From NCBI GenBank assembly GCA_963422205.2, contig CAXMWX010000005.1, forward strand, positions 128,001 to 192,000: a DNA stretch of 64,000 nucleotides. Reading direction: 5' to 3'. Below the pieces are notes generated by a model. That model was not told the DNA's origin, searched no databases, and worked only from the letters and a program-made list of their open reading frames with translations. Positions 17,389 to 36,136 of this stretch are shown here, one piece after another (within the stretch, counting starts at the first letter, position 1; each line of letters starts with the position of its first letter). The stretch is from Gammaproteobacteria bacterium (GTDB taxonomy: Bacteria > Pseudomonadota > Gammaproteobacteria > Eutrophobiales > Eutrophobiaceae). Position numbers and translations under genes: made by a program.

Positions 17389-17582
17389 AACTCCTTAACA
17401 TGAAAAATTATTGCCCGGCACCGATCACCAGAAGGCTGACTGTGCTGGATGTCGTGATACAGTACCAGTTTTTCACGGCGGTTGCGTCGTTTTTTGCTGC
17501 ATGGCAGATTAAGAGGGGCTTGGCCTCGCTCAAGCACAGCCGCTATAATGCCCTGCAATCGCACGGTGCTGGATACAACACC

Positions 17583-18224
17583 ATGAAACTGTACACCTAT
17601 TATCGAAGCTCTGCCGCCTACCGAGTGAGGATCGCACTCAACCTGAAACGAATAGCCTGTGAATATGTCTACCTTGACTTAAAAAATGCGGCACACAAGA
17701 CGAAGAGTTTCGCCGCCATCAATCCACAGCAGTTTGTCCCGACCCTGCTGGTCAATGGTAACGGCATGACACAATCCTTGAGCATCATCCGCTATCTTGA
17801 TACGACCTGCCCCGAACCCGGACTGTACGGCGATGATGCCATGCAGACAGCACAGATAGAATCCGCTTCTCAGTTAATCGCCTGTGATATCCATCCCTTA
17901 AATAACCTGCGTGTGCTGCAATACCTGAAAAATCAGACCGGGCTGCAACCGACCGAGGTGGATGACTGGTATCGACACTGGATCACGGAAGGCTTCAAGG
18001 TGCTTGAGCAGATTGTGCAGCCAGCCAACACCGACACGCCTTTCTGCTTCGCCAACCGGGTGACGCTGGCCGATGTCTGCCTGGCCCCACAGATGTATAA
18101 CGCCCGGCGCTTTGCGGTCAATCTCTCTCCTTACCCCAGGCTGGTGGCGATAGATGCCCATCTCATGAGTCTGGCTGAATTCTCTGATGCCGCCCCGGAA
18201 AATCAACCGGACTGTGCATCATAA
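17583..18224 (+). CDS. maiA: Maleylacetoacetate isomerase (GST zeta)
   Basis: MKLYTYYRSSAAYRVRIALNLK and DIHPLNNLRVL; start reassigned to 17583. Confidence 0.93.
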   Translation: MKLYTYYRSSAAYRVRIALNLKRIACEYVYLDLKNAAHKTKSFAAINPQQFVPTLLVNGNGMTQSLSIIRYLDTTCPEPGLYGDDAMQTAQIESASQLIACDIHPLNNLRVLQYLKNQTGLQPTEVDDWYRHWITEGFKVLEQIVQPANTDTPFCFANRVTLADVCLAPQMYNARRFAVNLSPYPRLVAIDAHLMSLAEFSDAAPENQPDCAS

Positions 18225-18253: not shown

Positions 18254-19747
18254 ATGAACCTGTTCGATCGGTTTGCCAGCGCCTATGCCAAAGATAAGGC
18301 AAGACCCGTCTTCCTGCATGAGGGCATTTCATTTCATGAGATAGAAAAACGCTCCGCCCAATATGCCAACCTGATAGGCGAGTTGGGGATACACACCGGC
18401 GATCGTGTTTGCATCTGTACCGAGAAGTGTATCGAATGGCTGCTTTTGTATCTGGGTTGCCTTCGCAGCGGCGCCATAGTCCAGCCGCTCAACCCCGACT
18501 TCACGCAAACTGAAATACGATACTATCTCAACGATGCCAGACCATTAGTGATTATCTGTAAACAAAGCCGGTATGGCGAGCTATCTGAATGGGCATCAGG
18601 CGATGGAATCCGTACCGTCCTGACACTGGATGCAGATAACAGCGGCAGCCTGGTCAGGCAAAGCCAGCAGTGCAGGGATACCTTCACCACGACTACAAGC
18701 CAGGCGGACGATCTGGCGGCACTGCTGTACTCTTCCGGTACAACTGGCAAACCCAAGGGCATCCCCATCAGCCACGGCAATTTGATCGCCAATGCAACCG
18801 CCTTGGTAGCCGCCTGGGGTATGAGTGCCGATGATGTCTTGTTACATGCCCTGCCGCTGTTCCATGTACATGGTTTATTCATCGCCCTGGGCACGGCGCT
18901 CGCCGCCGGCAGCCAGATCATCCTGCTGCACAAATTTACTGTCGATGGTGTGCTTCAGGCAATGCCCGATGCCAGCGTGTTTATGGCGGTGCCGACTTAC
19001 TACACCCGCCTGCTGGCCGATGTGCGTTTTGATAAAACATGCTGTCAGCAGATCCGTTTGTTCACCTGTGGCTCTGCGCCCTTGCTGGCGGCAACCTTTG
19101 CCGAGATAGCACAACGCACCGGCCATCAGCCACTGGAGCGTTACGGCATGACCGAAGCGGCCGGGGTGATCACCAGCAACGCCTTAAACGGCGAGCGCCG
19201 GGCAGGCTCAGTCGGCCAGCCGCTGCCGGGGTTGTCCATCAAAATCATTGATGATCATAATGCACCAGTGAGACCGGGCGAGAGGGGCGAGCTTGTCGTC
19301 AAAGGTTCGAGTATTTTCTCCGGTTACTGGCAGCGCCCGGAGGCCACCGCCGCCGCCTTCACCGAAGCGGGTTATTTTCGTACCGGCGATATCGCAAGGA
19401 TAAGCGAAGATGGCCATATTCAGATCGTTGGCAGATGTACGGAGCTGATCATCTCTGCTGGTGAGAACATCTACCCTAAGGAAATCGAAGCGTGCCTGAA
19501 TAACATAAGCGGCATCATCGAATCTGCCGTCATTGGAATCCCGCATACCGATCTCGGCGAGCAGGTCTGTGCCATCATCGTCACTGAAGAAGGTTTTACA
19601 TGCACCGAAGAGGATTTAAAAGCGGCATTAAAACAACGACTCGCCCGCTTCAAAGTACCACGCACGATCCACACCATCGAGCGCTTGCCAAGAAATGCGA
19701 TGGGCAAGGTGCAGAAGCACATCTTGCGTAGGACGTATACGGCTTGA
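18254..19747 (+). CDS. Acyl-CoA synthetase, malonyl-CoA synthetase (MatB)-like
   Basis: YSSGTTGKPKG, HALPLFHVHGL, ERYGMTE and PRNAMGKVQK motifs. Confidence 0.85.
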   Translation: MNLFDRFASAYAKDKARPVFLHEGISFHEIEKRSAQYANLIGELGIHTGDRVCICTEKCIEWLLLYLGCLRSGAIVQPLNPDFTQTEIRYYLNDARPLVIICKQSRYGELSEWASGDGIRTVLTLDADNSGSLVRQSQQCRDTFTTTTSQADDLAALLYSSGTTGKPKGIPISHGNLIANATALVAAWGMSADDVLLHALPLFHVHGLFIALGTALAAGSQIILLHKFTVDGVLQAMPDASVFMAVPTYYTRLLADVRFDKTCCQQIRLFTCGSAPLLAATFAEIAQRTGHQPLERYGMTEAAGVITSNALNGERRAGSVGQPLPGLSIKIIDDHNAPVRPGERGELVVKGSSIFSGYWQRPEATAAAFTEAGYFRTGDIARISEDGHIQIVGRCTELIISAGENIYPKEIEACLNNISGIIESAVIGIPHTDLGEQVCAIIVTEEGFTCTEEDLKAALKQRLARFKVPRTIHTIERLPRNAMGKVQKHILRRTYTA

Positions 19748-19806
19748 ACTCCATACTATGCAGGAAGTATGAAGGCTTATATCACCATTACCCTGTCAGC
19801 GATTAC

Positions 19807-20538
19807 CTAATACAACACCCAGGCCAGGTAGAGCAGCTTGATTGCAAACGCCGTCATCGCCAGCCTGAAGAAGAAGCGGAATTTATTCTCAGAGAGACAA
19901 TGCAGGAGCTGCCGCCCGGCTATGGCGCCGGGGATCCCGGCCAGGATGGCGGCAATGATCACGACCAGCCATTCGCTGTAGTCAAAGCCCTGCAACGTAT
20001 AGGCACTGATCTTTAACAGGTTCATGAATAACAATCCGGCGGCCAGTGTGGCCACGATCTTAAAACGTGACATGGCCTGGCGAAGCATGATCGGCTGAAA
20101 CAAACCGCCGAAAGAAAACAGCGTGGAAAAAAATGAATGCAGCACACCCACACAGAAAAACGGCCTGGGTATAGTGATATGCCATGTGATCGCCGGCACC
20201 CAGGTGGCCAGCAGGATGAACAGGGCAATGACCAAGGCGATCAGAAATGCGGGCAGATGAAAGTACAGCGGCGATGCACTGAATGCACCGATGATGCTGC
20301 CAGAGGCAAACGGGATGACGATCCGCCATTGAATATCTCTCCAGAAGGCAAACGTGCGCCCTAATGACAGGCCCAGCATCATGGGGCTGTGCAGCGGCAC
20401 CACATACTGCATCGGTAATACATTCGACAGCACGGCAATCATGATAAACCCGCCACCCACCGCAAATGCGGAGCTTACCAGGGCGGCGAGAAAAGCGGAG
20501 ATGATGATCAGTATGGCAAGCGGATCAGTCAGCGGCAT
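19807..20538 (-). CDS. TauE/SafE (TSUP) family membrane transporter, in frame with the upstream isomerase
   Basis: About 8 hydrophobic segments and AVGGGFIMI; internal ATG at 20538. Confidence 0.8.
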   Translation of the reverse strand: MPLTDPLAILIIISAFLAALVSSAFAVGGGFIMIAVLSNVLPMQYVVPLHSPMMLGLSLGRTFAFWRDIQWRIVIPFASGSIIGAFSASPLYFHLPAFLIALVIALFILLATWVPAITWHITIPRPFFCVGVLHSFFSTLFSFGGLFQPIMLRQAMSRFKIVATLAAGLLFMNLLKISAYTLQGFDYSEWLVVIIAAILAGIPGAIAGRQLLHCLSENKFRFFFRLAMTAFAIKLLYLAWVLY

Positions 20539-20943
20539 GGTGTGCCGTGCCTTATGTTTTATCTTTAAGGTGCTGAGGTGGATGTTGTTTTGTTTGTAGC
20601 TGAGCACCGGATCGGCCTCATACATATAATAAGAGATGGCGAGTAACCTGGAGTTATCGCTATCGGCAAGACATGCCGCCAGCGTGTCAAACACCTGCTG
20701 ACCGGCGGCTTTTTTCACCGCCAGCGAGCGCCCGCCACCCAGGATGCCGGTCAAATGCACAAAGGCATAATCCGCCTTGCCATCAGCGATCAGATAATCC
20801 TCATAGCAAACTGCCCTGAGACGAATGCCCGCCAAAGGAAATAGGCCGGTGGCAACCGCTGCATCACGTAATTCTTTCAGGATATACGCCACATCAATGT
20901 CGTCCTCCAGGTTGGCCGAGTATTCCAGGATAAAATGCGGCAT
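20539..20943 (-). CDS. hpaF: 5-carboxymethyl-2-hydroxymuconate isomerase (no stop; reads through into the TSUP gene)
   Basis: MPHFILEYSANL (catalytic Pro), GLFPLAGIRLRA, AFVH and KQNNIH motifs; ATG overlaps the upstream TGA. Confidence 0.88.
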
Positions 20944-21764
20944 CAGTTCACTGTCATCACCGCGATGGTGCAACCAACGGCAAAGACCGGGATCGGCTCA
21001 TAGAACCAAATCTCGCCGGTTGCCCCTTCAGTGGCGCCGGCAATGCTGATAAGTGTGCGGATCTCAAAGCCTCCCTGCCCGGCATCCCGGTAGGTCGCCG
21101 CATCGGTATAGGCGAGCAGATCCGCTTTGCGGTTATGAATGAGATGATCCAGAAACTGCCTGTCCCACGGCTCATTTATCGTGCCTGAGTCCGGCGTGGC
21201 CGGCCAATGTGATATGCCACCGGTACCGACGATGGCGATGCGCTCCGGGATGGCATCGCAGGCCTGGCGCACGGCACGCCCGAATGCGTACGCCCGGTGC
21301 AATGGCGTTAAAGGCGGTGCCTGACAATTTATATTCACCGGAATCACCGGCAGGCTGTTATCCGGGTTGAGAAAATGTAACGGCACCATGATACCGTGAT
21401 CGAATTTCCATTCTTCACAAAAGCCAACATCAACCTCCTGCATAACGTCAGCGATGATCTTTTTAGAGAGATCAGGACAGCCGGGGATCTGGCGGCGCTT
21501 GATCTTGAGCCAGTCCTCATCTTCAATCGGCCCCTCGTAGTCCGCCGCCATGCCCATAGCAAAGGGTGGCATGTTGTTGAAGAAAAAATTCCCGAAGTGC
21601 TCGGCAGCGATCACCATCAAGGCATCGGGCTGGCTGGCCTTGATCGCTGTACGCATACGCTCAAAGCCCGCATACAGGCGATGGCACTGGGCAGGATCGG
21701 CCAGCTCCCTGCGGCCGGTGATGCCGGGGGCATGACTGCATACGCCTGCAAAGACCAGACTCAT
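20943..21764 (-). CDS. Class III extradiol dioxygenase, LigB-like beta subunit
   Basis: SHAPG, EHFGNFF, FDHGIMVP, GTGGISHWP and GGFEIR motifs. Confidence 0.88.
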   Translation of the reverse strand: MSLVFAGVCSHAPGITGRRELADPAQCHRLYAGFERMRTAIKASQPDALMVIAAEHFGNFFFNNMPPFAMGMAADYEGPIEDEDWLKIKRRQIPGCPDLSKKIIADVMQEVDVGFCEEWKFDHGIMVPLHFLNPDNSLPVIPVNINCQAPPLTPLHRAYAFGRAVRQACDAIPERIAIVGTGGISHWPATPDSGTINEPWDRQFLDHLIHNRKADLLAYTDAATYRDAGQGGFEIRTLISIAGATEGATGEIWFYEPIPVFAVGCTIAVMTVN

Positions 21765-21768
21765 GCCC

Positions 21769-22119
21769 TCACCTGTGCTTGCCCGACTGTTCTATTTCCT
21801 GCACGCCGGGCGGCAGGGTTTCACCCAGGGTGGCATAGAGGCCGGCCCGTGGCTGACCGTATCTCTCCAGCCCCTCGCGCAACATATGCAGATAATCAAA
21901 CCAGGCAATCTGATGCAGTGCGGCATAGTGCATCAACAACTGCCCGTTCACACCCAACACATACAACAAGCCGATATCCGGTTGCTTGATGGCCGCCAGT
22001 TCTTCATCAGTCATTGGATAGGCTTCCAATAACGTATCCCGATCGTTCTCAAAACAGGCGCGCACCTTAGGGTCGCGATTTAATTCATAGATCAACTTTT
22101 GGACGTAGTACAGGCTCAT
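21769..22119 (-). CDS. LigA-like dioxygenase alpha subunit
   Basis: 116 aa helical protein with RACFEND..LLEAYPMTDEELAAI..DIGLLYVLGVN, directly upstream of the LigB-like gene. Confidence 0.75.
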   Translation of the reverse strand: MSLYYVQKLIYELNRDPKVRACFENDRDTLLEAYPMTDEELAAIKQPDIGLLYVLGVNGQLLMHYAALHQIAWFDYLHMLREGLERYGQPRAGLYATLGETLPPGVQEIEQSGKHR

Positions 22120-22122
22120 GGC

Positions 22123-23637
22123 TTATCTGCCTAACACCGGGATCTTGTGCCGACCATGGGCAAGGCAGATATTTTTCGTTTCCATGTAAAAATCAAAACT
22201 GTAATCGCCGCCATCCCGACCAATACCGCTGTACTTCATGCCACCAAACGGCGATGGCAGGTTGCGATTGTTCTCTGAATTGACCCAGATCATACCGGCC
22301 TCAATCGCCTCGGCCATGCGAAGCCCGCGGCTGCCATCATTGGTCCAGACATAGCCGGTCAAGCCATAATCGGTATCGTTGGCAATCGCCACCGCTTCGG
22401 CTTCACTCGCAAAAGGGATCGCTGTCAATACCGGCCCGAAGATCTCTTCCCGAGCGATCCGCATCGTGTTATCCGCCTGGGTAAACAGGGTCGGCTGCAC
22501 GTAATTACCCGGCCCGTCAATAGCACGGCCACCGGCGGCGATGTGCGCCCCCTCGGCGATGGCCGTGTCCATATAACTGAGGACTTTTTCATGGTGCGAG
22601 GGATGAATTAAGGGCCCGACCTCGGTATGCGGGTCTAACGGGTGGCCCACTTTGATCGCCTGTATCCGTTTGATTAATGCAGCGATAAACTCATCCTCCA
22701 AAGTACGTTGGACAAGCAGGCGGCTGCTGGAGGTACAGCGCTGACCATTCAAGCTGTAAATCATGAAGATAACCGCATCAAGGGCGCGCTCAACATCGCA
22801 ATCATCAAACACGATCACCGGATTTTTACCCCCTAACTCAACATGCACACGCTTTAAGGTGGCTGCCCCCTGTGCCATGATTCGGCTGCCGGTCACGGTC
22901 TCGCCAACAAAGCCGATGGCCTTTACCGCCGGATGCTCGGTCAGTGCCTTGCCAGCGACTTCGCCAAGCCCATTCACAGTATTCCAGACGCCTGCTGGCA
23001 GGCCGGCCTCCTCGCTGATCTCCGCCAGGATCATGGCCGTCAACGGGCTGAACTCGGCCGGCTTGTGTACGATGGTGCAGCCGGCGGCCAGCGCTGGTGC
23101 GATCTTCCAGGTGGCGAGCATGAATGGTGTGTTCCAGGGCGTGATCACACCGACCGGGCCGATGGGAAAACGCTTGGTATAATTAAGATGGTGTTCCTGA
23201 TGCAAGGCCAAACCGTTAGCCGCCTCGGGTGCTTTACTGGCAAAAAAACGCAAGTTCTCTGCCCCCCGGATGGCAGCGGCCTTCATAAAACGGATGGCCT
23301 GGCCGGAGTCCATGCTCTCCACCAGCGCGATCTCCTCAGCCCGCTTTGTGATTAAGTCCGCCAGTTGGTTTAATCGCTGCTTGCGTACCTTGCCGGAGGT
23401 CTGCCGCCACTCCTCAAATGCAGCCGCTGCCCCCGTGCAGGCCAGCGCAATATCCTCCGCCGTACCCGCCGCCACCTGACCGATGACAGAATTATCGACC
23501 GGCGTTAAGTTCTCAAACGTCTTGCCCCCGGCCGGGCTGACAAATGCACCATTGATGTAATGCCCGGTCACGTTATCCCGAAAGCGTTGCAGGTATTTCT
23601 CTGCCTGTCGGATGTTGTGTTTCAACTCATGGTGCAT
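22123..23637 (-). CDS. hpaE: 5-carboxymethyl-2-hydroxymuconate semialdehyde dehydrogenase
   Basis: ALDH motifs ITPWNTPFMLATWK, ELGGK, YSLNGQRCTSSSR and EIFGPV; start likely 23637. Confidence 0.9.
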   Translation of the reverse strand: MHHELKHNIRQAEKYLQRFRDNVTGHYINGAFVSPAGGKTFENLTPVDNSVIGQVAAGTAEDIALACTGAAAAFEEWRQTSGKVRKQRLNQLADLITKRAEEIALVESMDSGQAIRFMKAAAIRGAENLRFFASKAPEAANGLALHQEHHLNYTKRFPIGPVGVITPWNTPFMLATWKIAPALAAGCTIVHKPAEFSPLTAMILAEISEEAGLPAGVWNTVNGLGEVAGKALTEHPAVKAIGFVGETVTGSRIMAQGAATLKRVHVELGGKNPVIVFDDCDVERALDAVIFMIYSLNGQRCTSSSRLLVQRTLEDEFIAALIKRIQAIKVGHPLDPHTEVGPLIHPSHHEKVLSYMDTAIAEGAHIAAGGRAIDGPGNYVQPTLFTQADNTMRIAREEIFGPVLTAIPFASEAEAVAIANDTDYGLTGYVWTNDGSRGLRMAEAIEAGMIWVNSENNRNLPSPFGGMKYSGIGRDGGDYSFDFYMETKNICLAHGRHKIPVLGR

Positions 23638-24397
23638 TGCGCTGCTCCAGATACTCCTGCTCACTGATAATATAGCTGGTCAGGCGACCAATGTGTTCGA
23701 TTTCAATGCTGACCTCATCACCCGGCACCACATTCGACAAGCCCTTGGGGGTGCCGGTGGAGATCATATCGCCCGGCACCAGCGTCATACAGGCACTTAG
23801 GTATTCAATTAAAAATGTGATGCTGAAGATCATGTCCTGCGTGTGGCCTTGCTGTTTGATCTCGCCATTGACATAGGTACGCAAGGCCAGATTCTGCGGG
23901 TCGGGGATGTCTTCCTTATCCACAATATACGGGCCCAGCACGGTCAAGGTATCTCGGTTCTTTACTCTCAAGTTGGGCCGGTAGTAGTTCTCCAGATAAT
24001 CCCGAATGGCATAATCGTTACACAGGGTATAGCCGGCCACATAATCCATCGCCTCCTGCTGTGTCACCTTGCGGGCGGTTTTGCCAATCACGGCCACCAG
24101 CTCACACTCATAGTGCATATACGCCACCTCATCAGGCCGCATCACCTCAGCCCCATGACCAACCACGGTCGATGCGGTCTTCAAAAACAGCAGCGGCTCT
24201 TCAGGGGCGGTGAATTGCAACTCAGCCGCATGGTCAACATAGTTCAGGCCCAGCGCAATCATCGTGCCGTGTGGCGGCGCACACCAGGCAACATCACCTG
24301 GCTTGATATGGGCACCAGCCGTGGTCAGGAGATCACCATCAGGCTGAACCGTTACCGGTAGGGTGCGGCCATTGTGCTTGACCCAGGCGTGCTTCAT
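23627..24397 (-). CDS. hpaG: HpaG C-terminal-type subunit (FAA hydrolase family decarboxylase/isomerase)
   Basis: ALGLNYVDHA, MHYECEL and NDYAIRDYLENYYRPNLRVK motifs. Confidence 0.9.
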   Translation of the reverse strand: MKHAWVKHNGRTLPVTVQPDGDLLTTAGAHIKPGDVAWCAPPHGTMIALGLNYVDHAAELQFTAPEEPLLFLKTASTVVGHGAEVMRPDEVAYMHYECELVAVIGKTARKVTQQEAMDYVAGYTLCNDYAIRDYLENYYRPNLRVKNRDTLTVLGPYIVDKEDIPDPQNLALRTYVNGEIKQQGHTQDMIFSITFLIEYLSACMTLVPGDMISTGTPKGLSNVVPGDEVSIEIEHIGRLTSYIISEQEYLEQRNAP

Positions 24398-25185
24398 GCG
24401 CTCAAACCATTGGCATAATATTCTGCTTCACTGACGATGTAGCTGGTCAATGTCCCCACCCCGGCTATCATCACCTGCACTTCATCGCCCACCTGCACCT
24501 TCGGGCGTGCCGCCGGGAAACCGGTGACAAGCACGTCATCTGCCTGCAAGGTCATAAAATCACTCACTGCCTGAATCAACTGTGGGAGGGATAGGATCAT
24601 GTCGGCTGTGCTGGCCTGCTGTTTGACTTCCCCGTTGATCATGGTCTGGATCTTCAGCAGATGAGGATCGGCAATCGCCGCTTTATTGATGATGGCCGGG
24701 CCCAGGGGGCCGGACGAATCGAAACACTTGCTGATGACCGGTGGGCGAAAAAAGCTCACCTCCGGCAGGCTGAAGTCATTGAACACGGTATAGCCGGCCA
24801 CGTAATCCATGGCCGCCTCAGCAGGGATCTTAAAACCTGACTCGGCCATCACCACGGCCAGGGCAGCACCGGCCACCATGGCCTCAGCCGAATCAGGAAA
24901 TTGCACCAGGGCATTGTGCGCGGTAATGGTATTTTCCGGTTTGATAAAAAAGCAAGGTGCCCGGGGCGGCGATTGGTAAGGTGCGGTGCTGAACTTCTCT
25001 GCAAGCCCGGCATAGTGTTGCCGGTAGTTCAATGCCGCACAGATAACCGCATGATGCGGCGGCACCAACCAGATGAACTCATCCTCGCCCAGATGGCATC
25101 CGGCAACCACCGGCCTGCCCTGTGCATCCAGCGCAACCTGCAACTCCTCTGCCTCGTGGAGGATCTGTGCCATCGCTGTACCCAT
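24394..25185 (-). CDS. hpaG: HpaG N-terminal-type subunit (FAA hydrolase family)
   Basis: APYQSPPRAPCFFIKPENT and NDFSLPEVSFFRPPV motifs. Confidence 0.85.
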   Translation of the reverse strand: MGTAMAQILHEAEELQVALDAQGRPVVAGCHLGEDEFIWLVPPHHAVICAALNYRQHYAGLAEKFSTAPYQSPPRAPCFFIKPENTITAHNALVQFPDSAEAMVAGAALAVVMAESGFKIPAEAAMDYVAGYTVFNDFSLPEVSFFRPPVISKCFDSSGPLGPAIINKAAIADPHLLKIQTMINGEVKQQASTADMILSLPQLIQAVSDFMTLQADDVLVTGFPAARPKVQVGDEVQVMIAGVGTLTSYIVSEAEYYANGLSA

Positions 25186-25187
25186 GC

Positions 25188-25988
25188 CTAATCACTGCCG
25201 CCCGGTCGGTTTGCTGTGGTATCTGGCATCACTTCCCGAACAACACGGGCGGTGCCCTCGGCGAGCAACAAGGTGTCCACCGCCACCCCCACAAAGCGGG
25301 CGCCCGCTGCCAGATACGTTGCCAGCAGCGACTTATCCAGAGACAACACCCCGGCAAACTTGCCCATGGCCGTGATGTCACGCATGGCTTGTTCAATCGT
25401 ATTGACAACGGCTGGATGCCCCGCATGGCCGAGATGCCCCATGGAGGCAGACAGATCAGCCGGGCCGATAAAAATACCATCCACACCGGCCACACCGGCA
25501 ATCGCCTTGAGGTTCTCTATGCCCCTGGTGGTCTCGACCTGCACGATGATGCACATTTCATTGTTGGCCTGATGCAGGTAGTCTGTCACCCGATTCCAGC
25601 GGGCAGCACGTGCCAGCGCCGTGCCAAGGCCACGCACACCTTCCGGCGGGTAGTAAACCGATTGCACGATGCGCTCCGCCTGCCCGGCTGATTCCACCAT
25701 CGGTAGCAACAGGGTTTGCGCCCCCAGATCGAGCAGCTGTTTGAGCAGGTTGCGATCATCACTGGGCGGCCTGACAATGGCCGGGACGGCATAAGCGGCG
25801 ATGGTTTGCAGATATGAGAGGATATCGGCCAGATGAAACGGGGCATGTTCGGCATCGATCAATAACCAGTCAAACCCGGCACCGGCACAGATCTCTGCGC
25901 TGGTGGTGTCGGCAATGCCTGCCCAGAGACCGTATTGCACATCGCCTTGCTGCAATTTCTGCTTCAGTGTATTTTTCGGTATTTGCAT
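25188..25988 (-). CDS. hpaI: 4-hydroxy-2-oxoheptanedioate aldolase (HpcH/HpaI)
   Basis: GFDWLLIDAEHAP, LARAARWN, VQVET and FIGPADLSASMG motifs. Confidence 0.92.
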   Translation of the reverse strand: MQIPKNTLKQKLQQGDVQYGLWAGIADTTSAEICAGAGFDWLLIDAEHAPFHLADILSYLQTIAAYAVPAIVRPPSDDRNLLKQLLDLGAQTLLLPMVESAGQAERIVQSVYYPPEGVRGLGTALARAARWNRVTDYLHQANNEMCIIVQVETTRGIENLKAIAGVAGVDGIFIGPADLSASMGHLGHAGHPAVVNTIEQAMRDITAMGKFAGVLSLDKSLLATYLAAGARFVGVAVDTLLLAEGTARVVREVMPDTTANRPGGSD

Positions 25989-25996
25989 GGCTGAGG

Positions 25997-26800
25997 TTAC
26001 ACAAACTGACAGGCGAGCTCTCCCAACGGCCCGTAATCCGCCCGGATGTGATCGCCCGCTTTCACGCCCACCGGCCGGGTAAATGAGCCTGCCAGAATCA
26101 CCTGCCCGGGCTCAAGGCCAACGCCATGTCGGGCAAACCGTTTTGCCACCCAGATAATGCCGTTGGCCGGATGATCCAGCACCGCCGCCGCCAGGCCGGT
26201 CTCTTCCACTGCATCGTTTTTATACAACATCGCCCCTGCCCAGCGCAGGTCGACAGCGCCCGGCGGCAGGCGCTGCTCGCCCATAATGACCGCCGCATTG
26301 CCCGCATTATCGGCTATGGTATCGAACACCGTGCGGGTGTAACCGCTGTCAGGATCGATCCGATAACTGCGGGCGGCGATCAATTCCAGGGCCGGGGTAA
26401 TGTAATCGGTGGCATCTAGCACATCGTCCACACTGACATCTTCACCCCGAAGCGGTGCTTTTAGAATAAAGGCAAGCTCCACTTCAATGTACGGATCAGT
26501 GAAATCGCCCGCCCTTATCGTATCGCCGTTGTTATAAAACATCTCATCCAGCAAGGTGCCATAATCCGGCTCATCAATATTCATCGCCTTCTGCATGGCC
26601 TTTGAGGTCAGGCCGACCTTGTAGCCTGTCAGCACAGCCCCTTCAGCGATCTTGATATCCACCCAGGCCCGCTGGATGGCATAGGCATCGTCCATGTCCA
26701 TGGCGGGATGGCGTAGGGTCGTTGCCGGTATTTGCTGACGATGACGCTCGGCACGATGCAGGGCGCGGGCGATTTGTCTTACCTTCGCTGCCGTCAACAT
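25997..26800 (-). CDS. hpaH: 2-oxo-hept-3-ene-1,7-dioate hydratase
   Basis: KVGLTSKAMQ..IDEPDYG, IEVELAF, VFDTIADNA and LAGSFTRP motifs. Confidence 0.92.
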   Translation of the reverse strand: MLTAAKVRQIARALHRAERHRQQIPATTLRHPAMDMDDAYAIQRAWVDIKIAEGAVLTGYKVGLTSKAMQKAMNIDEPDYGTLLDEMFYNNGDTIRAGDFTDPYIEVELAFILKAPLRGEDVSVDDVLDATDYITPALELIAARSYRIDPDSGYTRTVFDTIADNAGNAAVIMGEQRLPPGAVDLRWAGAMLYKNDAVEETGLAAAVLDHPANGIIWVAKRFARHGVGLEPGQVILAGSFTRPVGVKAGDHIRADYGPLGELACQFV

Positions 26801-26989
26801 GGCCTATCTCGCCAGGATGTCTCTTCCATGCACGGCGATTAGCCGCTGGGGTGATGTATGCAAACCATCCCACTGTTTTTTACTGAAACGCCGCTGCATG
26901 GACACATACTCACATTCAATCAATGGGGCGATATTTTCATATAACCTGTTGCCCTTGCAGGTCATCCTGATACAGCGCCTTCGCCATCA

Positions 26990-27697
26990 TCAGGAGGTTT
27001 TCTCGCCCTGCCCGCCCCCATTTTTTTCGATCCTTTTCGGGAAATTCCTGATGAACTCTGGGTCGGATAACTCCAGATGGGCATAGATCGTATCGATGCT
27101 ATCCCACAGGGCATCATAGTGAATGCAAAGCGCATCGGCACGGCTCATCCAGGTACGTATTTGTCTGGCCACGGCACACTTAAAGAAGAACGCGTTGATT
27201 GGCCAGGGCAATAAGACACCTGCCAGGCTGCCCAGCTTGGCAGACTGAAGGCACAGTAGATTGCGCCGATGCAGGCTGGCACAGATATCCTCAATGTCGC
27301 GGTATAAAAAAATGAATTTAATACTCGCCTGACTCCCTCGGTATACGTTGTGCGGGGGAGGGAACGGTGCATGCTTCAAGCCATCTCGGTCGTTCTGGTC
27401 ATTCACAGGTATAAAATGCGCCAGATACGTGATCAAAAATGTGGTGGCCGATCCTCCTGTCGAGCTGACGATGCAGGCCTTTTGTGTACCGTGCTCGGCC
27501 AGAAAATCCCGGTAGTTTTTGTGCGTGAGATTTCTTCTGTACCATTGCAGATAATATCGGATGCTAAGCAAAGCACACCATACAGGTGTGCTAACTAAAA
27601 ATCGCTTTATCCGTTGTTGGCCTCTGATCAGATCACGCATCAGGTTAAGGGGCTCGCTGTGTGTTGGTGAGTATTGCCTAACATAGCTATTGGTCAT
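26990..27697 (-). CDS. Hypothetical protein, possible sulfotransferase-like P-loop fold (start uncertain)
   Basis: IVSSTGGSATTFL, GLKH, FIFLYRDIEDICASLHRR and IHYDAL resemble 5'-PSB/3'-PB-type sulfotransferase elements. Confidence 0.45.
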   Translation of the reverse strand: MTNSYVRQYSPTHSEPLNLMRDLIRGQQRIKRFLVSTPVWCALLSIRYYLQWYRRNLTHKNYRDFLAEHGTQKACIVSSTGGSATTFLITYLAHFIPVNDQNDRDGLKHAPFPPPHNVYRGSQASIKFIFLYRDIEDICASLHRRNLLCLQSAKLGSLAGVLLPWPINAFFFKCAVARQIRTWMSRADALCIHYDALWDSIDTIYAHLELSDPEFIRNFPKRIEKNGGGQGEKTS

Positions 27698-29141
27698 CAG
27701 CCAGCAGCGTTGCTACCAGCCGGTCGATAACGGCAATGGCGAGATCGATGGTCTCCTTATGAGTACGGTAGGATAGCACGGCAAATCGGATCATGTAATG
27801 ACCGCCCAGCAGGGTAGATGACAGCAGGATCGTCCCATCCGCCCGGATGGCCTCGAGCAGCTTTTTGTTGAACCCATCGGCATCCGCCACAGCCACATAA
27901 CGAAAGACAAAGATGGACAGCGCCGGTGGCGGCCCGGTTTCCATGCCGGGCATCGCCTTGATTTGCTCATAGGCATAGCGGGCGAGCAGCAGTTTTTCAC
28001 TTAACATGGCCCGAAACGGCGCCACGCCGATCAGCTTTAACGGCAACCACAAACGCAGCGCGCGAAAATGCCGGGTCAGTTCCGGCCCGACATCCGCTGG
28101 CGATACCTCGTCTTTGTTATAGAAACTGTCCTGCATGTAGTTTGCCGTGCAAAAGTGTGCCTGATAGAGCAGCTCGCCATCTTTGACAAGGGCCGCCCCC
28201 AGACCGAACGGCGTGTGCAACGCCTTGTGCGGATTCATCACGACCGAATCTGACAAGGCCATATCGGCGAGCTTGTCCTTGACCAAATCGCTCAAAACAA
28301 AAAAACCGCCATAGGCAGCGTCTATGTGATACCAGAGTTCATGCCGCTTGGCAACCGCACCGAGCGCCGCCAGCGGATCAACGCTGCCCACATCCGTCGT
28401 CCCAGCTGAGGCCACCACCATCCAGGGCATCAAGCCGCGGCGGCGATCAGCATCGATCATCTCGGCGAGCGCATCAGGGCACATACGAAATGCCGAATCC
28501 ATCGGCACATTGACCTGCACACACTCACCCATGCCTGCGATATGCAAGCCTTTTATCACGGCGTGGTGCGTGATCCCGGTCATATAGACAACGGCCTTCT
28601 CATAGTCCCTGGCTTTCAGTCGGAACGCCTCCCGGGCGGTGACGATGCAGGTCAGGGTGGCCAAGGAGCCGCCGGATGCCAGCGTGCCTTTGGCGTTATC
28701 TGGATAACCTGCCAGCCCGGCCATCCAGTCAAGCAACTGATTTTCGAGGTGTACCGCCCCCGGGCAGTTGGCATAATCGCCCACGTATTCATTGGTGATT
28801 GCCGCGATATAATCGCCGAGGGCGGCGTAGTACATGCTGCATGGCGGGATATAGGCCAGGAACCTGCCGGATACCGGGCTTAACCCCTGCTCTTCGACCT
28901 GGGACTGGTACAAAGCCAGCACAGCATCCATCGCCATGCCCTGCTCGGCGATGGGCGAGGCGAATATTCCCCGGCCACGTTCATCCGTATTCACATAGGC
29001 CGGGCGATCTTTAATCCGCTCCAAAAACGCCTCGGTGTAGGTAGTCACCTTATCCAGCAGGACGGCACGCTGTTCAGCATCCGGCTCAATGATCGCCGCC
29101 TGTTGTTCATACGCTCTTATCTGTGCGATAAGTGCACTCAT
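27687..29141 (-). CDS. PLP-dependent group II decarboxylase, aromatic-L-amino-acid decarboxylase-like
   Basis: RFLAYIP, SGGSLATL, SAGTTDVGSVD, HIDAAYGGF, NPHK (PLP Lys) and ELTRHFRALRLW motifs. Confidence 0.85.
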   Translation of the reverse strand: MSALIAQIRAYEQQAAIIEPDAEQRAVLLDKVTTYTEAFLERIKDRPAYVNTDERGRGIFASPIAEQGMAMDAVLALYQSQVEEQGLSPVSGRFLAYIPPCSMYYAALGDYIAAITNEYVGDYANCPGAVHLENQLLDWMAGLAGYPDNAKGTLASGGSLATLTCIVTAREAFRLKARDYEKAVVYMTGITHHAVIKGLHIAGMGECVQVNVPMDSAFRMCPDALAEMIDADRRRGLMPWMVVASAGTTDVGSVDPLAALGAVAKRHELWYHIDAAYGGFFVLSDLVKDKLADMALSDSVVMNPHKALHTPFGLGAALVKDGELLYQAHFCTANYMQDSFYNKDEVSPADVGPELTRHFRALRLWLPLKLIGVAPFRAMLSEKLLLARYAYEQIKAMPGMETGPPPALSIFVFRYVAVADADGFNKKLLEAIRADGTILLSSTLLGGHYMIRFAVLSYRTHKETIDLAIAVIDRLVATLLADDQ

Positions 29142-29267
29142 CGCTCACGACTCCCCATCTTTAGCCGCCAGAACCAGCAAGCACAACATGAGGCACAGAT
29201 CGTCCAAGGGGTATTTCCCTCGGTGTGAAAACAGATGACGGCAAGATAACAGAGATAATCAGGACGT

Positions 29268-31013
29268 TCAGGCACTCGCCCCTTTGCCAAACACACGCTC
29301 ACGTACTGGCAGGCGTTTTTTCGCCCCCTGACAGACCGCTTTAGGCACATCAAAGACCAGGCGGTTATCCGGGCCGATGCCCTCTTCCCGCAAGCAGGCC
29401 GCCAGGTCATCGTCATCGACCGTGAAACCCGCCCGGCGATTGAACTCCCATTCATCCTCCAGACAGCCCCAGCCCAGATCGATGATCTGCTCACGTGTCA
29501 CCTCCTCGCCGTAGAACAGGTGGTAGCACTGGCGGATCTCATCCAGCGTGGGTTGCAGGAACTGACAAAACCCGGACGCATCGCAAACCGCATTGATGAT
29601 CTGCGCTTCCTGTGAAGCATACACCGCCTCCTCGCCGCCCAGTTCCGGATCAATCACCAGACCTGCCGTGTGATCGGCCCCCATTGCGCTGGTGGCATAG
29701 GTCACACCGGCCGCCTTCAATGGGCGCGGATCCCAGGCCGGCAGCGCCTGCCCCTTGGCCACCGGGATGCGGTGATGCCCTCGCTGTGTCCCCACCGCCA
29801 AGGCGCCATCGCCGATCAGCCGGCCGAGCGCAGAGCCCTGATTGACTTCCTGTTCTAACAAGGCGATCGCACCGGCCGCATCACCGTAGGCCATACCCCC
29901 GGAGTCCATATACACCGCAATCGCCGCACCGGTCTCAATGGTATCCAGCCCCAGCTCATCACACAGGCGATCCAGTTGTGCCACCTGCTCCCAGTCATTA
30001 ATCGCACAACAGGAACCCAGCAAGGTCAAGGTCTCAAACTCCAGCGCCGAGGTCAGGTAGTTGCCGTCCTTATCGTGCACGATATTCGAACAGCGGACGA
30101 TGCAACCGCTCATGCAGTTGTGCATACCGCCGCCACGTTCAGCAAAGCTCTCATGGATGCGGGCGCCATCCAGCTTGCCCACCTCCGGGTTACGGCCCTC
30201 GGTGCGGTTTTTATACGGAAACGTATGCAGCATGTTGGCCATGGGTACGCCGGTGCTGGTGCCGCCTTTGAAGAGGTTGTGTCTGCCGTCAGACAGGTAG
30301 GTCTGGCTGAAGGCTTTGTTGTGGGCAGCAAAGCCCTTTGTATCTGCGGCCTGGCGCAGCCGTGCCTTGCCCGGATCGATCACGATCCACTTCAAACACT
30401 TGGCCCCCATCACCGCACCGACACCGCCTCGGGCGGCATGTCGGGCCGGTCGGCGTTGCTTGTTGCGATCGGTGCAGGCAACCGATGCCCCCTTGAGCAT
30501 CATCTCACCCGCCGGGCCGATACTGATCGCCGATGCGGTTTTGGGATAATCGGCCAGCAGCCGCTCACACGCCGCATAATTCCACATGCCTTTATAGTCA
30601 TCGGCGGCAAGCAGCCTGGCCCCCTCGGCGCTGACTTCCAGCCCCCAGCGTTTATCCATCGCCATAGGCTGGCCGGTGATGATGATGCCACGATACCCCA
30701 GCCTCATCATATCCTGGCCCGGATTACCGCCGGCATTCGCTTCTTTGATGCCGCCCGTTAGCGGGCTTTTACAACCGACCGACAAACGCCCGGAAGTCGG
30801 CGCCGATGTCCCCGATAAAATCCCCGGCGCCAGCACCAGCAGATTATCCGGGCCAAGCGGATCGCATTGCGGGTCGCATTGCTCCAGCAGGATGCGGGCC
30901 GATAAAGAACGCCCCCCCAGGTATCGCCACTGCTCAGGGTAATCCACAACCTCCACCTGTTGCCTGGTCATATCCACCCGAATCAGTTTATCGTTATCCC
31001 ATGCCTGCGACAT
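29268..31013 (-). CDS. Aldehyde:ferredoxin oxidoreductase (tungstopterin AOR family)
   Basis: KSPLTGGIKEANAGG, AARGGVGAVMGAK, CMSGCIVRC, EFETL, CDELGLDTIE and DASGFCQF motifs. Confidence 0.9.
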   Translation of the reverse strand: MSQAWDNDKLIRVDMTRQQVEVVDYPEQWRYLGGRSLSARILLEQCDPQCDPLGPDNLLVLAPGILSGTSAPTSGRLSVGCKSPLTGGIKEANAGGNPGQDMMRLGYRGIIITGQPMAMDKRWGLEVSAEGARLLAADDYKGMWNYAACERLLADYPKTASAISIGPAGEMMLKGASVACTDRNKQRRPARHAARGGVGAVMGAKCLKWIVIDPGKARLRQAADTKGFAAHNKAFSQTYLSDGRHNLFKGGTSTGVPMANMLHTFPYKNRTEGRNPEVGKLDGARIHESFAERGGGMHNCMSGCIVRCSNIVHDKDGNYLTSALEFETLTLLGSCCAINDWEQVAQLDRLCDELGLDTIETGAAIAVYMDSGGMAYGDAAGAIALLEQEVNQGSALGRLIGDGALAVGTQRGHHRIPVAKGQALPAWDPRPLKAAGVTYATSAMGADHTAGLVIDPELGGEEAVYASQEAQIINAVCDASGFCQFLQPTLDEIRQCYHLFYGEEVTREQIIDLGWGCLEDEWEFNRRAGFTVDDDDLAACLREEGIGPDNRLVFDVPKAVCQGAKKRLPVRERVFGKGASA

Positions 31014-31316
31014 ACCTGCCTCTAAAAGTTACGGCTGTGGTATGCCATCATGCCGTTATGCAAAACACATGTCCAGCACCTAAGTCCATCATCACGTAAC
31101 TGGCCGCTTGTCGATGTAGCCAGCAGATGGGTGAAGGCAAGATAATCTGTCACATATCAGCCGTCCTGCTTTATTGATGCCGGGCATTATAATCCGGCCA
31201 TTAGCATCAGGTAAACTGCTATGATGTACAATGGTAAGATATGGCTGCATGACATCATGCGATGTTGCCCATAGATGAAGTACCATCTTGCAGCCGTTTA
31301 ATATGAGTATCATGCT

Positions 31317-32445: not shown

Positions 32446-32901
32446 TTAATCCAGCGCCCTGACATACCTGTGTAATTTCGCCAGACAGTGTTCAAGCTGT
32501 TTTAATTCTGCCCTCGTCAGCACACATTCCAATTCTTTCTCAAACCTTAATGCCAGCGGCACGATCCGTCGGTAGCTGGCACGGCCCCTGGCGGTCAAGC
32601 GCAACACGGAACGGCGTTTATCCTCGGCAGAAAACGTCCTGTGCAGGAGTTTTTTTTGCAGCAGACGGGCGACGGCACGACTGACCGAGACCTTCACCAT
32701 TTCAGTCTCAACACCCACCTGTTCAGCAGACAAACCGGACTTCTCTCCCAGCACCGCCAGCACCCGCCATTCATGGATAGACAGATTAAACGGCGTGGAG
32801 TAAAGCCGGGCAAATGCGGTGCTGATCCGGTTGGTCACGACCGACAACTGATAAGGAATAAATTCCCGCAGCTTCAATACCTGATGGTTTTTGTTACTCA
32901 T
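32446..32901 (-). CDS. MarR family regulator 1
   Basis: [25 protein letters not shown] and [10 protein letters not shown]; start at 32901 overlaps the hmgA end. Confidence 0.9.
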
Positions 32902-34240
32902 CGGCGGCGGGGAAATATTTTTCCAGTGACTGCCAGCAAGCGGTGTAATGTCTTTGTCTTTGTGCTGATTCCTGGGCGTAGCGGGTGGGGTGGATGATAT
33001 AACGTGATTCAAACATAAACGCCATTGTCGCTTCCTGTTTTACCGGTGCTAACCGGGCATTGCTGGCCTCTTCAAACGCCTGTTTGTCCGGGCCGTGGGC
33101 CGACATACAGTTATGCAGGCTGGCACCGCCGGGCATAAACCCGGCTGGCTTGGCATCATAAACACCATCGATCAAGCCCATGAACTCGCTCATGACGTTA
33201 CGATGATACCAGGGCGGGCGGAAGGTATCCTCGGCCACCATCCAGCGCGGCGGGAAGATCACAAAATCCACATTCGCCATGCCCTCGGTGTCAGACGGTG
33301 ATGTCATGACGGTGAAGATGGACGGGTCGGGATGATCATAGCTGATGCTGCCCATCACATTGAAGCGCTCCAGCGCATATTTATAAGGCAGGGAATTACC
33401 TGCCCAGGCCACCACATCCAGCGGCGAGTGATGCAAAGCGGCCTGGTAGAGCTTGCCGGCGAACTTGCACGTCAGCGTAAACTCGCCCGCTTTATCTTCA
33501 AAGGCAGCCACCGGCGCCATGAAGTCGCGATTATTGGCATAGCCATCAGAGCCCACCGGGCCACGCTCCGGCAGGCGGAATGGGGCGCCGTAGTTTTCAC
33601 AGATATACCCGCGCGCTTCCCCCTCAAGCAGCCTCACCTGAAACTTCATGCCTCTGGGGATCAGGACAATCTCGCCCGGTACGGCGCGCAACCGGCCGCA
33701 CTCGGTAAAAACAGCCAGCCCGCCTGACTCCGGCACGATCAATAACTCGCCATCGGCGTCATAAAAATAACGCCCCTGCATGGACTGATTGGCGGCATAC
33801 ATATGAATGCCGCAACCTGTCTGTGTCGCCGCATCACCATTGGCCGCCAGCGTTACCAGGCCATCAATAAAATCCTGCGGTGTCTCCGGCAGCGGCAGGG
33901 GATCCCAACGCATCGGGGTCGGTGGTGCTGCCACATCGAAAATCGGGGCGGTTTGCCACAAATCATGGGGCAGCGGGGTAAAATCATGCTGCACCACAGA
34001 CGGGCGAATACGATAAAACCAGTTCCGGCGGTTCTCCGCACGTGGTGCAGTGAAGGCGGTGGTGCTGAACTTCTCCGTATACAGGCCATGGGCTACCCTC
34101 TGGGGAGAGAAGCGCCCCCTGGGCAAGGCATCCGGCAAGGCTTCTGATTCCTGCTCATTACCAAAACCGCTGAGGTAGACATAGTCATCGGCCGCCGCTG
34201 CGGTCTTGAGTGGCTGTGTTTTCATGACGCTCGCCATCAT
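32894..34240 (-). CDS. hmgA: Homogentisate 1,2-dioxygenase
   Basis: [34 protein letters not shown] and [12 protein letters not shown] motifs. Confidence 0.97.
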
Positions 34241-35437: not shown

Positions 35438-36136
35438 ATGGCCGGTTTTGATAAATGCGTTGGCAGCTATGCGGCGGCCTTAGATGGCCTGGAAGATGGC
35501 ATGACCATCATCGCCGGTGGCTTTGGCTTGTGCGGCATACCGGAGGGCTGCATCGCACAGATAAAAAAAATGGGTTCCCGTGCGCTCACCATCGTTTCCA
35601 ATAACTGCGGGGTGGATGATTTCGGACTGGGGCTGTTGTTGCACGATAAGCAGATCAAAAAAATGATCTCCTCGTATGTGGGTGAGAATGCGCTGTTTGA
35701 AGAGCAGTTGTTAAACGGTGAGCTGGAAGTTGAATTGACGCCACAGGGCACTCTGGCGGAGAGGATGCGCGCAGGGGGTGCTGGCATTCCGGCATTCTAC
35801 ACCGCTACCGGTTACGCAACGCCAGTGGGTGAGAACAAGGAAGTCAGGGAATTCAACGGCAAGCCCTGTATTCTGGAGGAGGCCATCATGGGTGATTTTG
35901 CCATTGTTAAAGGCTGGAAGGCGGATCGCTATGGCAACGTCATCTACCGCCACACGGCGCAAAATTTTAACCCCATGGCAGCGACAGCCGGCAGGATCAC
36001 CGTTGTTGAAGTGGAGGAGATCGTCGAGCCAGGTGCATTGGAGCCTGCACAGATACACACACCGGGCATTTATGTGGATCGCTTGATCCAGGGCCGGTTT
36101 GAAAAACGCATCGAACAACGCACCACGGCGGGGTGA
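35438..36136 (+). CDS. scoA: 3-oxoacid CoA-transferase subunit A
   Basis: [22 protein letters not shown] and [17 protein letters not shown] motifs. Confidence 0.93.

Follow-up and report, generated by a model that had tools for sequence, protein, structure and literature searches.

How an aldehyde oxidoreductase and an amino acid decarboxylase came to stand at the head of a pathway for homoprotocatechuate (3,4-dihydroxyphenylacetate), and what they might supply to it, is the question raised by an 11.2-kb run of minus-strand genes (19807-31013) in the window analysed here, a 64,000-nt stretch of one contig of a marine gammaproteobacterial genome (2.99 Mb in 14 contigs, 97.97% complete; G000 below, where G-codes denote comparison genomes and L-codes the loci compared). 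The closest named relatives of the window proteins belong to uncultured Gammaproteobacteria. An earlier note on this DNA had proposed that L-DOPA is decarboxylated to dopamine, which a tryptophan tryptophylquinone (TTQ) dehydrogenase and the aldehyde oxidoreductase (AOR) then convert to 3,4-dihydroxyphenylacetate for cleavage by the hpa enzymes, no ring hydroxylase being needed. The parts of such a route are present and no HpaB was found; however, the AOR-decarboxylase pair is not specific to hpa, its adjacency to hpa runs through a probable scar, and a candidate ring hydroxylase is encoded in the window. Comparison of gene neighbourhoods indicates instead that the run is made of two parts with different histories, and we give about an even chance to the reading that a general arylacetate-forming module has been secondarily fused to the hpa genes, with dopamine or L-DOPA as a plausible added branch.

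The run and the junction within it

Read from 31013 down to 19807, the run comprises the AOR-family gene (29268-31013, 581 aa; PF02730 at 8e-58, 196 bits, and PF01314 at 2e-51, 176 bits), a group II pyridoxal phosphate (PLP) decarboxylase of aromatic-amino-acid-decarboxylase-like type (27687-29141, 484 aa; PF00282 at 4e-51, 174 bits), an orphan open reading frame (ORF; 26990-27697), the remnant of a MarR-type hpaR (26804-27034), hpaH, hpaI, two hpaG genes, hpaE, the genes for LigA and LigB, and hpaF, encoding 5-carboxymethyl-2-hydroxymuconate isomerase (CHMI), with a TauE domain; its 3' end is convergent with an acyl-CoA synthetase gene (18254-19747). That AOR, decarboxylase, hpaH-I-G-G-E, dioxygenase and hpaF all lie on one strand was borne out, coordinates included, but the gene list needed correction: the orphan ORF and the truncated hpaR stand between the decarboxylase and hpaH, and the dioxygenase is a two-subunit LigA plus LigB enzyme and not one of the E. 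coli HpaD type.

The ~650 bases that follow the decarboxylase have no relative and replace the gene that comes next in related genomes. A search of 5.8 billion proteins gave no homologue of the orphan ORF (235 aa, 216 aa in the database copy), and Pfam yielded nothing for it at E up to 1; its sequence has no match in the relatives' loci or elsewhere in the window genome, and its GC3 is 0.58 as against 0.65-0.71 in the neighbouring genes. The stretch reads in frame into the hpaR remnant, which corresponds to the C-terminal 71 residues of the MarR regulator heading the hpa operon of G017 (tblastn, 38% identity, E 8e-13), carries two in-frame stops and ends 4 bases before the start of hpaH. The orphan ORF is probably a rearrangement scar rather than a gene, and as the junction sequence is the same in two public runs the scar is not an assembly slip; the whole of 19700-31100 is letter-for-letter the same in contigs of both runs, bar two letters at 20575. 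No remnant of a class III PLP gene or of a flavoprotein gene with a twin-arginine translocation (Tat) signal, the genes that follow the decarboxylase in relatives, was found between 26701 and 27800 at E up to 1e-3, the hpaR remnant being the only match.

G017 has AOR, the decarboxylase operon and hpaR-hpa in the same order and all on one strand, hpaR lying ~8 kb beyond the decarboxylase operon, and a deletion or rearrangement in a G017-like island would yield the layout of the window. Judged from the remnant, the hpa operon has lost its HpaR repressor, and probably its native promoter too; with the 5' half of hpaR gone, and probably the promoter with it, the hpa genes would now be read from upstream, most probably from the AOR promoter. 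A consensus scan of the run is weak either way (promoter-like sites numbered 7 where 9.6 +/- 2.9 were expected, terminator-like sites 19 where 11 +/- 4.3 were), and within that limit it placed promoter-like sites only upstream of AOR and neither promoter- nor terminator-like sites in the gaps at 29142-29267 and 26801-26989.

Beyond the junction the profile scores indicate a complete hpa lower pathway, in agreement with the earlier note. HpaE, the 5-carboxymethyl-2-hydroxymuconate semialdehyde dehydrogenase (22123-23664; TIGR02299, 777 bits against a cut-off of 638), HpaH, the 2-oxo-hept-4-ene-1,7-dioate hydratase (25997-26800; TIGR02312, 401 against 351.5), and the C-terminal-type HpaG subunit (23627-24397; TIGR02303, 371 against 276) all score above the NCBIfam equivalog cut-offs, whilst HpaI, the 4-hydroxy-2-oxoheptanedioate aldolase (25188-25988; PF03328; TIGR02311, 353.5 against 368.8), and the N-terminal-type HpaG subunit with its FAA hydrolase fold (24394-25185; TIGR02305, 222.7 against 228.65) fall just below theirs. 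CHMI reaches 131 bits in Pfam against a cut-off of 26.5, and 112 against 215 with NF011605. The HpaD slot (20943-22119) is occupied by LigA (21769-22119; PF07746) and LigB (20943-21764; PF02900); as the HpaD model TIGR02298 (HpaD_Fe), whose cut-off is 316 bits, gives only 37, the ring-cleavage enzyme is taken to be of a divergent two-subunit LigAB type, whose substrate, from gene position only, would be homoprotocatechuate. LigAB orthologues (64-69% identity) occur in four other genomes of the 400 scored in the class, each time within an hpa cluster, and no report of a LigAB-type enzyme in the HpaD slot was found in the literature searched. The gene order is that of G017 (hpaR, H, I, G, G, E, dioxygenase, CHMI, TauE), with LigAB standing where HpaD and a thioesterase gene were.

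CHMI (PF02962, residues 11-132) and the TauE/SafE (TSUP) permease (PF01925, residues 156-380) share one 388-codon frame in the window (19807-20973). A real fusion was considered but is now doubtful, since the two public runs lack the two letters at 20575, so that CHMI ends after ~129 residues and TauE becomes a separate, overlapping gene. TauE accompanies CHMI in G017 (as a separate gene), in G030 (with one gene between) and in G010 (where a single tblastn alignment covers both domains), and the protein is a candidate arylacetate permease.

In the available text of PMC3053370 and PMC7180172 the meta operon of E. coli W and C (hpa, or hpc) is hpaGEDFHI with HpaR and HpaBC, and its lower-pathway enzymes have counterparts in the window, with HpaE, HpaH and the C-type HpaG scoring above the cut-offs, HpaI and the N-type HpaG a little short of them, and CHMI recognised by Pfam. 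The window differs from it in that HpaG is split between two genes, HpaD is replaced by LigA and LigB, the regulator is only a remnant, and neither HpaBC nor the MFS-type HpaX is there.

These observations raise the possibility that the adjacency means nothing for function, the hpa enzymes serving imported homoprotocatechuate or related acids, possibly through the TauE-type permease, and their present position being an accident of deletion. The scar at the junction fits this explanation, as does the company of TauE and CHMI in the hpa clusters of G017, G010 and G030. The upper steps of the pathway also appear to be interchangeable between genomes: the LigAB-type clusters of G369 and G396 adjoin a VanA-like Rieske oxygenase gene (L113, 186-1280; L114, 1349-2455), at L114 together with a sodium:solute symporter gene, and this could be homovanillate-type O-demethylation feeding homoprotocatechuate, whilst in G029, which has hpa genes with no AOR, TTQ or decarboxylase gene, a phenol-2-monooxygenase-type enzyme adjoins an hpa cluster that is without HpaB. 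However, an hpa operon stripped of its repressor and promoter region would be silent or uncontrolled unless driven from upstream, yet all of its genes are intact. Moreover, when 37 genomes of the window's family were compared (they are related and not independent, and the counts are small), five of the six with a strong CHMI match, defined as E below 1e-25, also had AOR and TTQ genes. A purely accidental neighbourhood is, in our view, unlikely, although it deserves to be kept in mind.

The conserved setting of the AOR-decarboxylase pair

The history of the other part of the run is best seen from its relatives. A survey of AOR neighbours, taking one genome per species, gave 37 AOR loci. At loci where AOR was at least 77% identical to that of the window, the decarboxylase lay within 6.3 kb downstream on the same strand in 11 of 13, from 11 different assemblies, and at 51-72% identity it was found in none of 21. 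Next to the decarboxylase stood a class III PLP enzyme in nine of the 11; a divergent P450 gene was present in ten and MarR-hmgA lay within 4 kb in seven. Nine assemblies (L123-L125, L127-L130, L135 and L136) share the order divergent P450, then AOR, decarboxylase and class III PLP enzyme, around 8300-14800 of each locus (around 270-6300 in L124); seven of these have MarR-hmgA within 4 kb, and in six kynureninase, fah, maiA and CoA transferase genes lie beyond. The best family match of the class III PLP enzyme is the aminotransferase domain of PRK06148/PRK06149. A second arrangement, in G017 and L122, runs AOR, a cysteine-desulfurase-like gene, a paralogue of the flavin adenine dinucleotide (FAD)-dependent monooxygenase discussed below, the decarboxylase and a Tat-signal flavoprotein.

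The tie between the pair and the hpa genes which the earlier note led us to expect was not seen, since hpaH, hpaI, LigB and CHMI were absent within 10 kb of AOR at all 37 loci whereas hmgA lay near seven of the 11 pairs. The conserved unit in this clade of marine gammaproteobacteria, on these comparisons, is AOR and decarboxylase with a third gene that varies and whose product might act on the amine by oxidation or deamination, and its conserved neighbourhood appears to be that of homogentisate and not of homoprotocatechuate. As the module stands in relatives beside hmgA-fah-maiA together with a P450 or an MhaA-like monooxygenase, its ancestral outlet was probably hydroxylation to homogentisate.

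Within the family a decarboxylase orthologue (55-61% identity) is found in six of the 37 genomes (G000, G003, G009, G010, G017 and G030), and AOR orthologues (64-85% identity) in 14, including all six of these. TTQ light chains occur in 12, hmgA in 11 (ten of them with AOR), HpaB in five, of which G030 is the sole one also to have hpa genes, and strong CHMI in six (G000, G010, G017, G029, G030 and G031). Among the other decarboxylase genomes, HpaE exceeds its cut-off in three (G010, G017 and G030) and does not reach it in G003 and G009; these two have the decarboxylase with no hpa pathway, and the enzyme is thus not confined to hpa genomes either.

What the decarboxylase itself makes can be narrowed down only in part. 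Its description as aromatic-amino-acid-decarboxylase-like holds at family level: its best solved relative is the tryptophan decarboxylase of Ruminococcus gnavus (4obu, 212 bits), the catalytic Tyr is kept, and it belongs to the same fold family as 4obu and the plant pairs of aromatic amino acid decarboxylase and aldehyde synthase (6eew, 6eem, 6eei and 6eeq), with which it shares the PLP lysine, the stacking His and the catalytic-loop Tyr. H192, D274, K306 (in NPHK) and Y335 are invariant across 32 homologues; aligned to 4obu and 6eei, the first three supply the PLP-stacking His, the Asp and the Schiff-base Lys, these roles, like those of the AOR residues below, being general knowledge of the enzymes. 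Y335 aligns with F338 of 6eei, which we take to be Arabidopsis phenylacetaldehyde synthase, at a position presumably held by Tyr in true decarboxylases and by Phe in aldehyde synthases; this Tyr is also a point at which 4riz and 4rj0 depart from 4rit. As the catalytic-loop Tyr is kept, the enzyme should release an amine and not an aldehyde, and a separate amine-oxidising step would therefore be required. Direct aldehyde synthesis, which would have dispensed with an amine oxidiser, was considered and rejected in view of Y335 at the Tyr/Phe switch together with the retained H192.

The decarboxylase falls below every NCBIfam equivalog, the best being the diaminobutyrate decarboxylase model (171 bits against a cut-off of 900), and, for all its 212 bits to 4obu, it sits in a bacterial clade of group II enzymes that is very large and uncharacterised, a relative being encoded in 579 of 581 scanned stretches. 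Its homologues in other phyla (43-52% identity) lack AOR- or homogentisate-type neighbours in 77 of 80 loci examined, and among those 80 loci, mostly from other phyla, no neighbour family recurs in more than seven.

The tryptophan decarboxylase as nearest solved relative gives some colour to the idea that the pair is biosynthetic, making indole-3-acetate or phenylacetate as a signal by a tryptamine- or phenylethylamine-type route, and the tryptamine route to auxin does consist of a decarboxylase, an amine-to-aldehyde step and aldehyde oxidation in that order. However, the pair is set among catabolic genes (hmgA, fah, maiA, HPPD and hpa) in the window and in seven of the 11 other loci, and it co-occurs with TTQ amine dehydrogenases and TonB-dependent receptors, so that we find a signalling role hardly probable at all.

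The AOR has 9mqx and 1aor as its best solved relatives (~182 bits, full-length alignment). A member of the tungsten/molybdenum-pterin aldehyde:ferredoxin oxidoreductases, it carries the AFOR_N and AFOR_C domains and aligned Fe-S Cys residues (CxxCxxxC plus a fourth Cys): against 9mqx, the first two Cys of CMSGCIVRC and the later C in GFCQF match target Cys, and the E of EFE and the H of GADH align with the target E and H, presumably with the Cys-ligand, Glu and His roles of P. furiosus AOR. The enzyme lacks a signal peptide and stands alone, with neither an AorA- nor an AorC-like gene next to it; the YdhV-type equivalog NF007354 gives it 82.9 bits against a cut-off of 868, over the N-terminal part alone. 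AorABC of Aromatoleum aromaticum (PDB 8c0z), which presumably oxidises phenylacetaldehyde in phenylalanine breakdown, is alike in having an AOR-family catalytic subunit proposed to act on arylacetaldehydes from aromatic amino acids; the window AOR differs from it in scoring 155 bits and in having no AorA or AorC partner genes. A second AOR (616 aa, 30% identical to that of the window) lies on contig C9 of the same genome (L121, C9:80000-92000; 5517-7367), flanked by a ferredoxin-like (PadI-like) gene and a FAD/NAD oxidoreductase (PadH-like) gene as in an AorABC-type operon. Contig C9 also carries the MoaA gene of the genome.

Amine oxidation and the ring hydroxylase

The TTQ enzymes that the proposed route calls for are present, and as two sets. 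The first (42371-45419, minus strand; heavy chain, MauE, MauD and light chain, by Pfam) is like aromatic amine dehydrogenase (AADH) in both chains, AADH being the best solved relative of each: the heavy chain scores 163 bits to AADH against 124 to methylamine dehydrogenase (MADH), and for the light chain the figures are 165 bits to AADH and 121 to most MADH entries, although the 160.5 bits to the MADH 3c75 make the light chain a weak discriminator by itself. The MADH equivalog cut-offs are not reached. The light chain of the first set carries a twin-arginine signal, SRRSFL. The second set (5392-7089, minus strand; heavy chain 5938-7089, light chain 5392-5916; PF06433) is 63-65% identical to the first in its light chain and 42% in its heavy chain. 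Each set adjoins a TonB-dependent receptor gene; a MauG-type maturase was not found in the TTQ cluster, and the sole CCP_MauG match of the genome is on contig C9. A third candidate amine oxidiser is a Tat flavoprotein encoded elsewhere on the contig of the window.

Further genes were noted beside both sets. Around the second (5392-12889) lie a cytochrome-c-like ORF (4950-5591) and genes for an amidohydrolase, an amidase, a TonB-dependent receptor and a GntR regulator, an arrangement that would suit a cell taking up an amide and hydrolysing it to release an amine. Between the first set and the FAD monooxygenase, and with the same neighbour in G010, is a gene for a protein of metallo-beta-lactamase fold (40575-41594), whose best family is the 'quinoprotein relay system zinc metallohydrolase' (109 bits against a cut-off of 280).

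With regard to the ring hydroxylase, the genome-wide search that the earlier note had recommended gave no HpaB match in the window or in the whole genome with TIGR02309, TIGR02310 or PF03241, the controls for which matched. The statement that no ring hydroxylase accompanies the pathway therefore holds for the HpaBC type; it does not hold more widely, as a FAD-dependent aromatic monooxygenase of the FAD_binding_3 family is encoded on the plus strand of the window (38648-40345, 565 aa; PF01494; NF006002, 773 bits against a cut-off of 416). The nearest named families of this protein, which is single-copy in the genome, are the 3-hydroxyphenylpropionate hydroxylases. Orthologues, taken as 64% identity or more, are found in nine of the 37 family genomes, all nine of which have hmgA, AOR and a TTQ light chain and five of which have CHMI, the four without it being G001, G003, G007 and G009.

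It could be supposed that this monooxygenase takes the place of HpaB, turning 4- or 3-hydroxyphenylacetate from tyrosine or tyramine into homoprotocatechuate. It is a group A aromatic hydroxylase and the only such gene in the genome, its homologues adjoin the decarboxylase in G009, G010, G017 and G003, and the phenol-2-monooxygenase-type enzyme beside the HpaB-less hpa cluster of G029 makes the arrangement plausible in this family. The orthologues in four CHMI-less genomes, the presence of hmgA in nine out of nine, and the position of the gene next to HPPD and MarR in both the window and G010 all tell against it. The length and hmg-side position also fit the description of MhaA, in the available text of PMC3053370 a 3-hydroxyphenylacetate 6-hydroxylase of 566 aa which makes homogentisate and whose gene is next to the hmg genes; MhaAB of P. 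putida U and Paraburkholderia xenovorans LB400 is described there as a ~565-aa flavoprotein, formerly annotated as MhpA-like, beside hmg genes as in the window. In contrast to MhaAB, no MhaB-like 60-aa coupling gene stands out in the window, where only an unconvincing 65-aa ORF lies downstream. On the strength of length, family (NF006002) and position, as compared by description, the monooxygenase is a candidate MhaA-like arylacetate hydroxylase, and a role for it in feeding hpa is quite improbable.

As no HpaB was found and the monooxygenase tracks the homogentisate genes, dopamine or L-DOPA would be the simplest internal source of 3,4-dihydroxyphenylacetate. A pathway dedicated to L-DOPA, in which the decarboxylase prefers L-DOPA, dopamine is exported, and TTQ and AOR enzymes form 3,4-dihydroxyphenylacetate for hpa cleavage with no hydroxylase, draws on the same observations: all of the parts are there, hpa has no regulator of its own and directly follows the decarboxylase, and among genomes with AOR and TTQ genes CHMI is present in four of the six with the decarboxylase as against one of the five without. 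However, the decarboxylase is also found in G003 (96% complete) and G009 (85% complete), which have no CHMI and no HpaE above the cut-off and in which an enzyme for DOPA alone would serve no purpose; in the 11 other assemblies the pair is mostly by homogentisate genes and never by hpa, and the homogentisate pathway has no entry for 3,4-dihydroxyphenylacetate. Among solved structures the closest is moreover a tryptophan decarboxylase, at 212 bits as against 138 (7xin) and 128 (1js3) for DOPA decarboxylases. The genome yielded no source of DOPA; a search for a tyrosinase gave no match, but its control also matched nowhere and it is thus uninformative. That L-DOPA breakdown is what the pair is for is, in our judgement, distinctly unlikely, whereas its supply as an added branch of a broad arylamine and arylacetate island, and not as the defining function of the module, is plausible.

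A possible fused module and its catabolic island

A secondary fusion of an arylacetate-forming module to hpa would work as follows. From its fold family and catalytic Tyr, the cytoplasmic decarboxylase would convert an aromatic L-amino acid to an arylethylamine, which in relatives would be turned into the arylacetaldehyde by the class III PLP enzyme or the Tat-exported flavoprotein encoded after the decarboxylase; the window is without that third gene, for which the two periplasmic TTQ dehydrogenases and the Tat flavoprotein elsewhere on the contig are candidates. The stand-alone AOR would then oxidise the aldehyde to the arylacetate. A family-typical hpa operon, its HpaD exchanged for LigAB, would have been put right after the decarboxylase by a rearrangement that took with it the gene following the decarboxylase, the 5' half of hpaR and probably hpa's own promoter. 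Dopamine, or L-DOPA by way of the decarboxylase, could thereafter pass through the AADH and AOR steps to 3,4-dihydroxyphenylacetate and on to hpa.

Several points should be set against this reading. The topological difficulty raised by the earlier note is real: every amine-oxidising candidate found in the genome is periplasmic or exported, while the decarboxylase and AOR are, on prediction, cytoplasmic, so that the amine must leave the cell and the aldehyde return; in G017, however, the decarboxylase gene overlaps that of a 627-aa Tat-signal flavoprotein, and this coupling suggests that the split topology is a recurrent one in the clade and does not speak against function. The aldehyde step could be carried out instead by the AorABC-type AOR of L121 or by one of several NAD-dependent aldehyde dehydrogenases. 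Co-transcription of the two parts is read from nothing more than the terminator-free gaps and the missing 5' half of hpaR, and a promoter might lie inside the orphan sequence; the homogentisate outlet of the relatives is likewise read from adjacency, and the match to MhaA from a description and not from an alignment. G001, of the same genus, lacks both the decarboxylase and CHMI, though AOR, TTQ, hmgA and the FAD monooxygenase are all there, and the arrangement is therefore strain- or species-specific. Finally, the whole argument is drawn from sequence.

The wider window is an aromatic catabolic island, in which the homogentisate genes are hmgA (32894-34240, minus strand; TIGR01015, 645 bits, above cut-off), fah (34344-35339, plus), a CoA transferase gene among them (35438-36799, plus), HPPD, for 4-hydroxyphenylpyruvate dioxygenase (36847-37983, minus; TIGR01263, 393 bits, above cut-off), and maiA (17400-18224, plus; TIGR01262, 250 bits, above cut-off). 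Also present are two MarR genes, NapG/NapH-like ferredoxin-type proteins and an Lrp regulator. No Biopterin_H (phenylalanine hydroxylase) domain was found in the window genome, and PaaA and PaaC are encoded on contig C5, so that phenylalanine is probably degraded via phenylacetate and not via tyrosine. At 50322-56748 lie NapH/MauN and NapG/MauM ferredoxin-like genes, a 187-aa ORF, the Lrp gene and a fused gene of the indolepyruvate:ferredoxin oxidoreductase family (53239-56748, 1169 aa), which point to a ferredoxin-linked arylpyruvate route whose electron carrier could be common with AOR. At the other end of the window, 457-4294 holds PcfJ-like, WYL, GIY-YIG and PD-(D/E)XK nuclease genes of lower GC (0.49-0.52), possibly the edge of a mobile or defence element beside the catabolic island.

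The lower pathway and the logic of leading amines to homoprotocatechuate are already known. The 3,4-HPA catabolon of P. putida U (tyn plus hpa; Arcos et al. 2010), as far as it is set out in the available text of PMC7180172, takes aromatic amines through arylacetaldehydes and arylacetates to homoprotocatechuate, as in the present proposal, with an hpaG-E-D-F-H-I type operon under a MarR-type HpaR; it handles tyramine and dopamine, the latter needing no ring hydroxylase. The window differs from it in that no HpaBC was found, hpaR is truncated, the amine oxidisers are TTQ enzymes of AADH-like type, ring cleavage is by LigAB, the candidate aldehyde step is a stand-alone AOR pterin enzyme and not an NAD-dependent dehydrogenase, and a decarboxylase is attached. 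In the literature searched there was no report of a conserved operon in which a stand-alone AOR and a group II decarboxylase adjoin the homogentisate genes of oxic marine bacteria, nor of such a unit fused to hpa through loss of hpaR; for the literature on AOR, tungsten, phenylacetaldehyde and decarboxylases this was judged by titles and abstracts. That the window holds, for an aerobic marine bacterium, a hydroxylase-free catecholamine or L-DOPA unit, in which decarboxylase, TTQ and tungsten-family AOR feed a transcriptionally fused hpa, with a conserved AOR-decarboxylase-class III PLP operon behind it, is a rather improbable but worthwhile prospect.

If the link between the two parts is not real, then nothing sets the region apart from an ordinary island of aromatic catabolism. 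Dopamine, DOPA and other catecholic compounds are released by some algae and invertebrates, and if the link is real, these may be mineralised without a ring hydroxylase, and a single deletion that removes a repressor can rewire catabolic modules. The tungsten-family AORs, which have mostly been studied in anaerobes, may then have a regular place in the aerobic marine turnover of aromatic amines and amino acids, and through the undescribed AOR-decarboxylase-class III PLP operon a pterin/tungsten enzyme would, if this is true, have a settled part in breaking down aromatic amino acids under oxic conditions. The pairing of AOR and decarboxylase provides, in addition, a setting in which the function of a very large and uncharacterised bacterial clade of group II decarboxylases can be tested.

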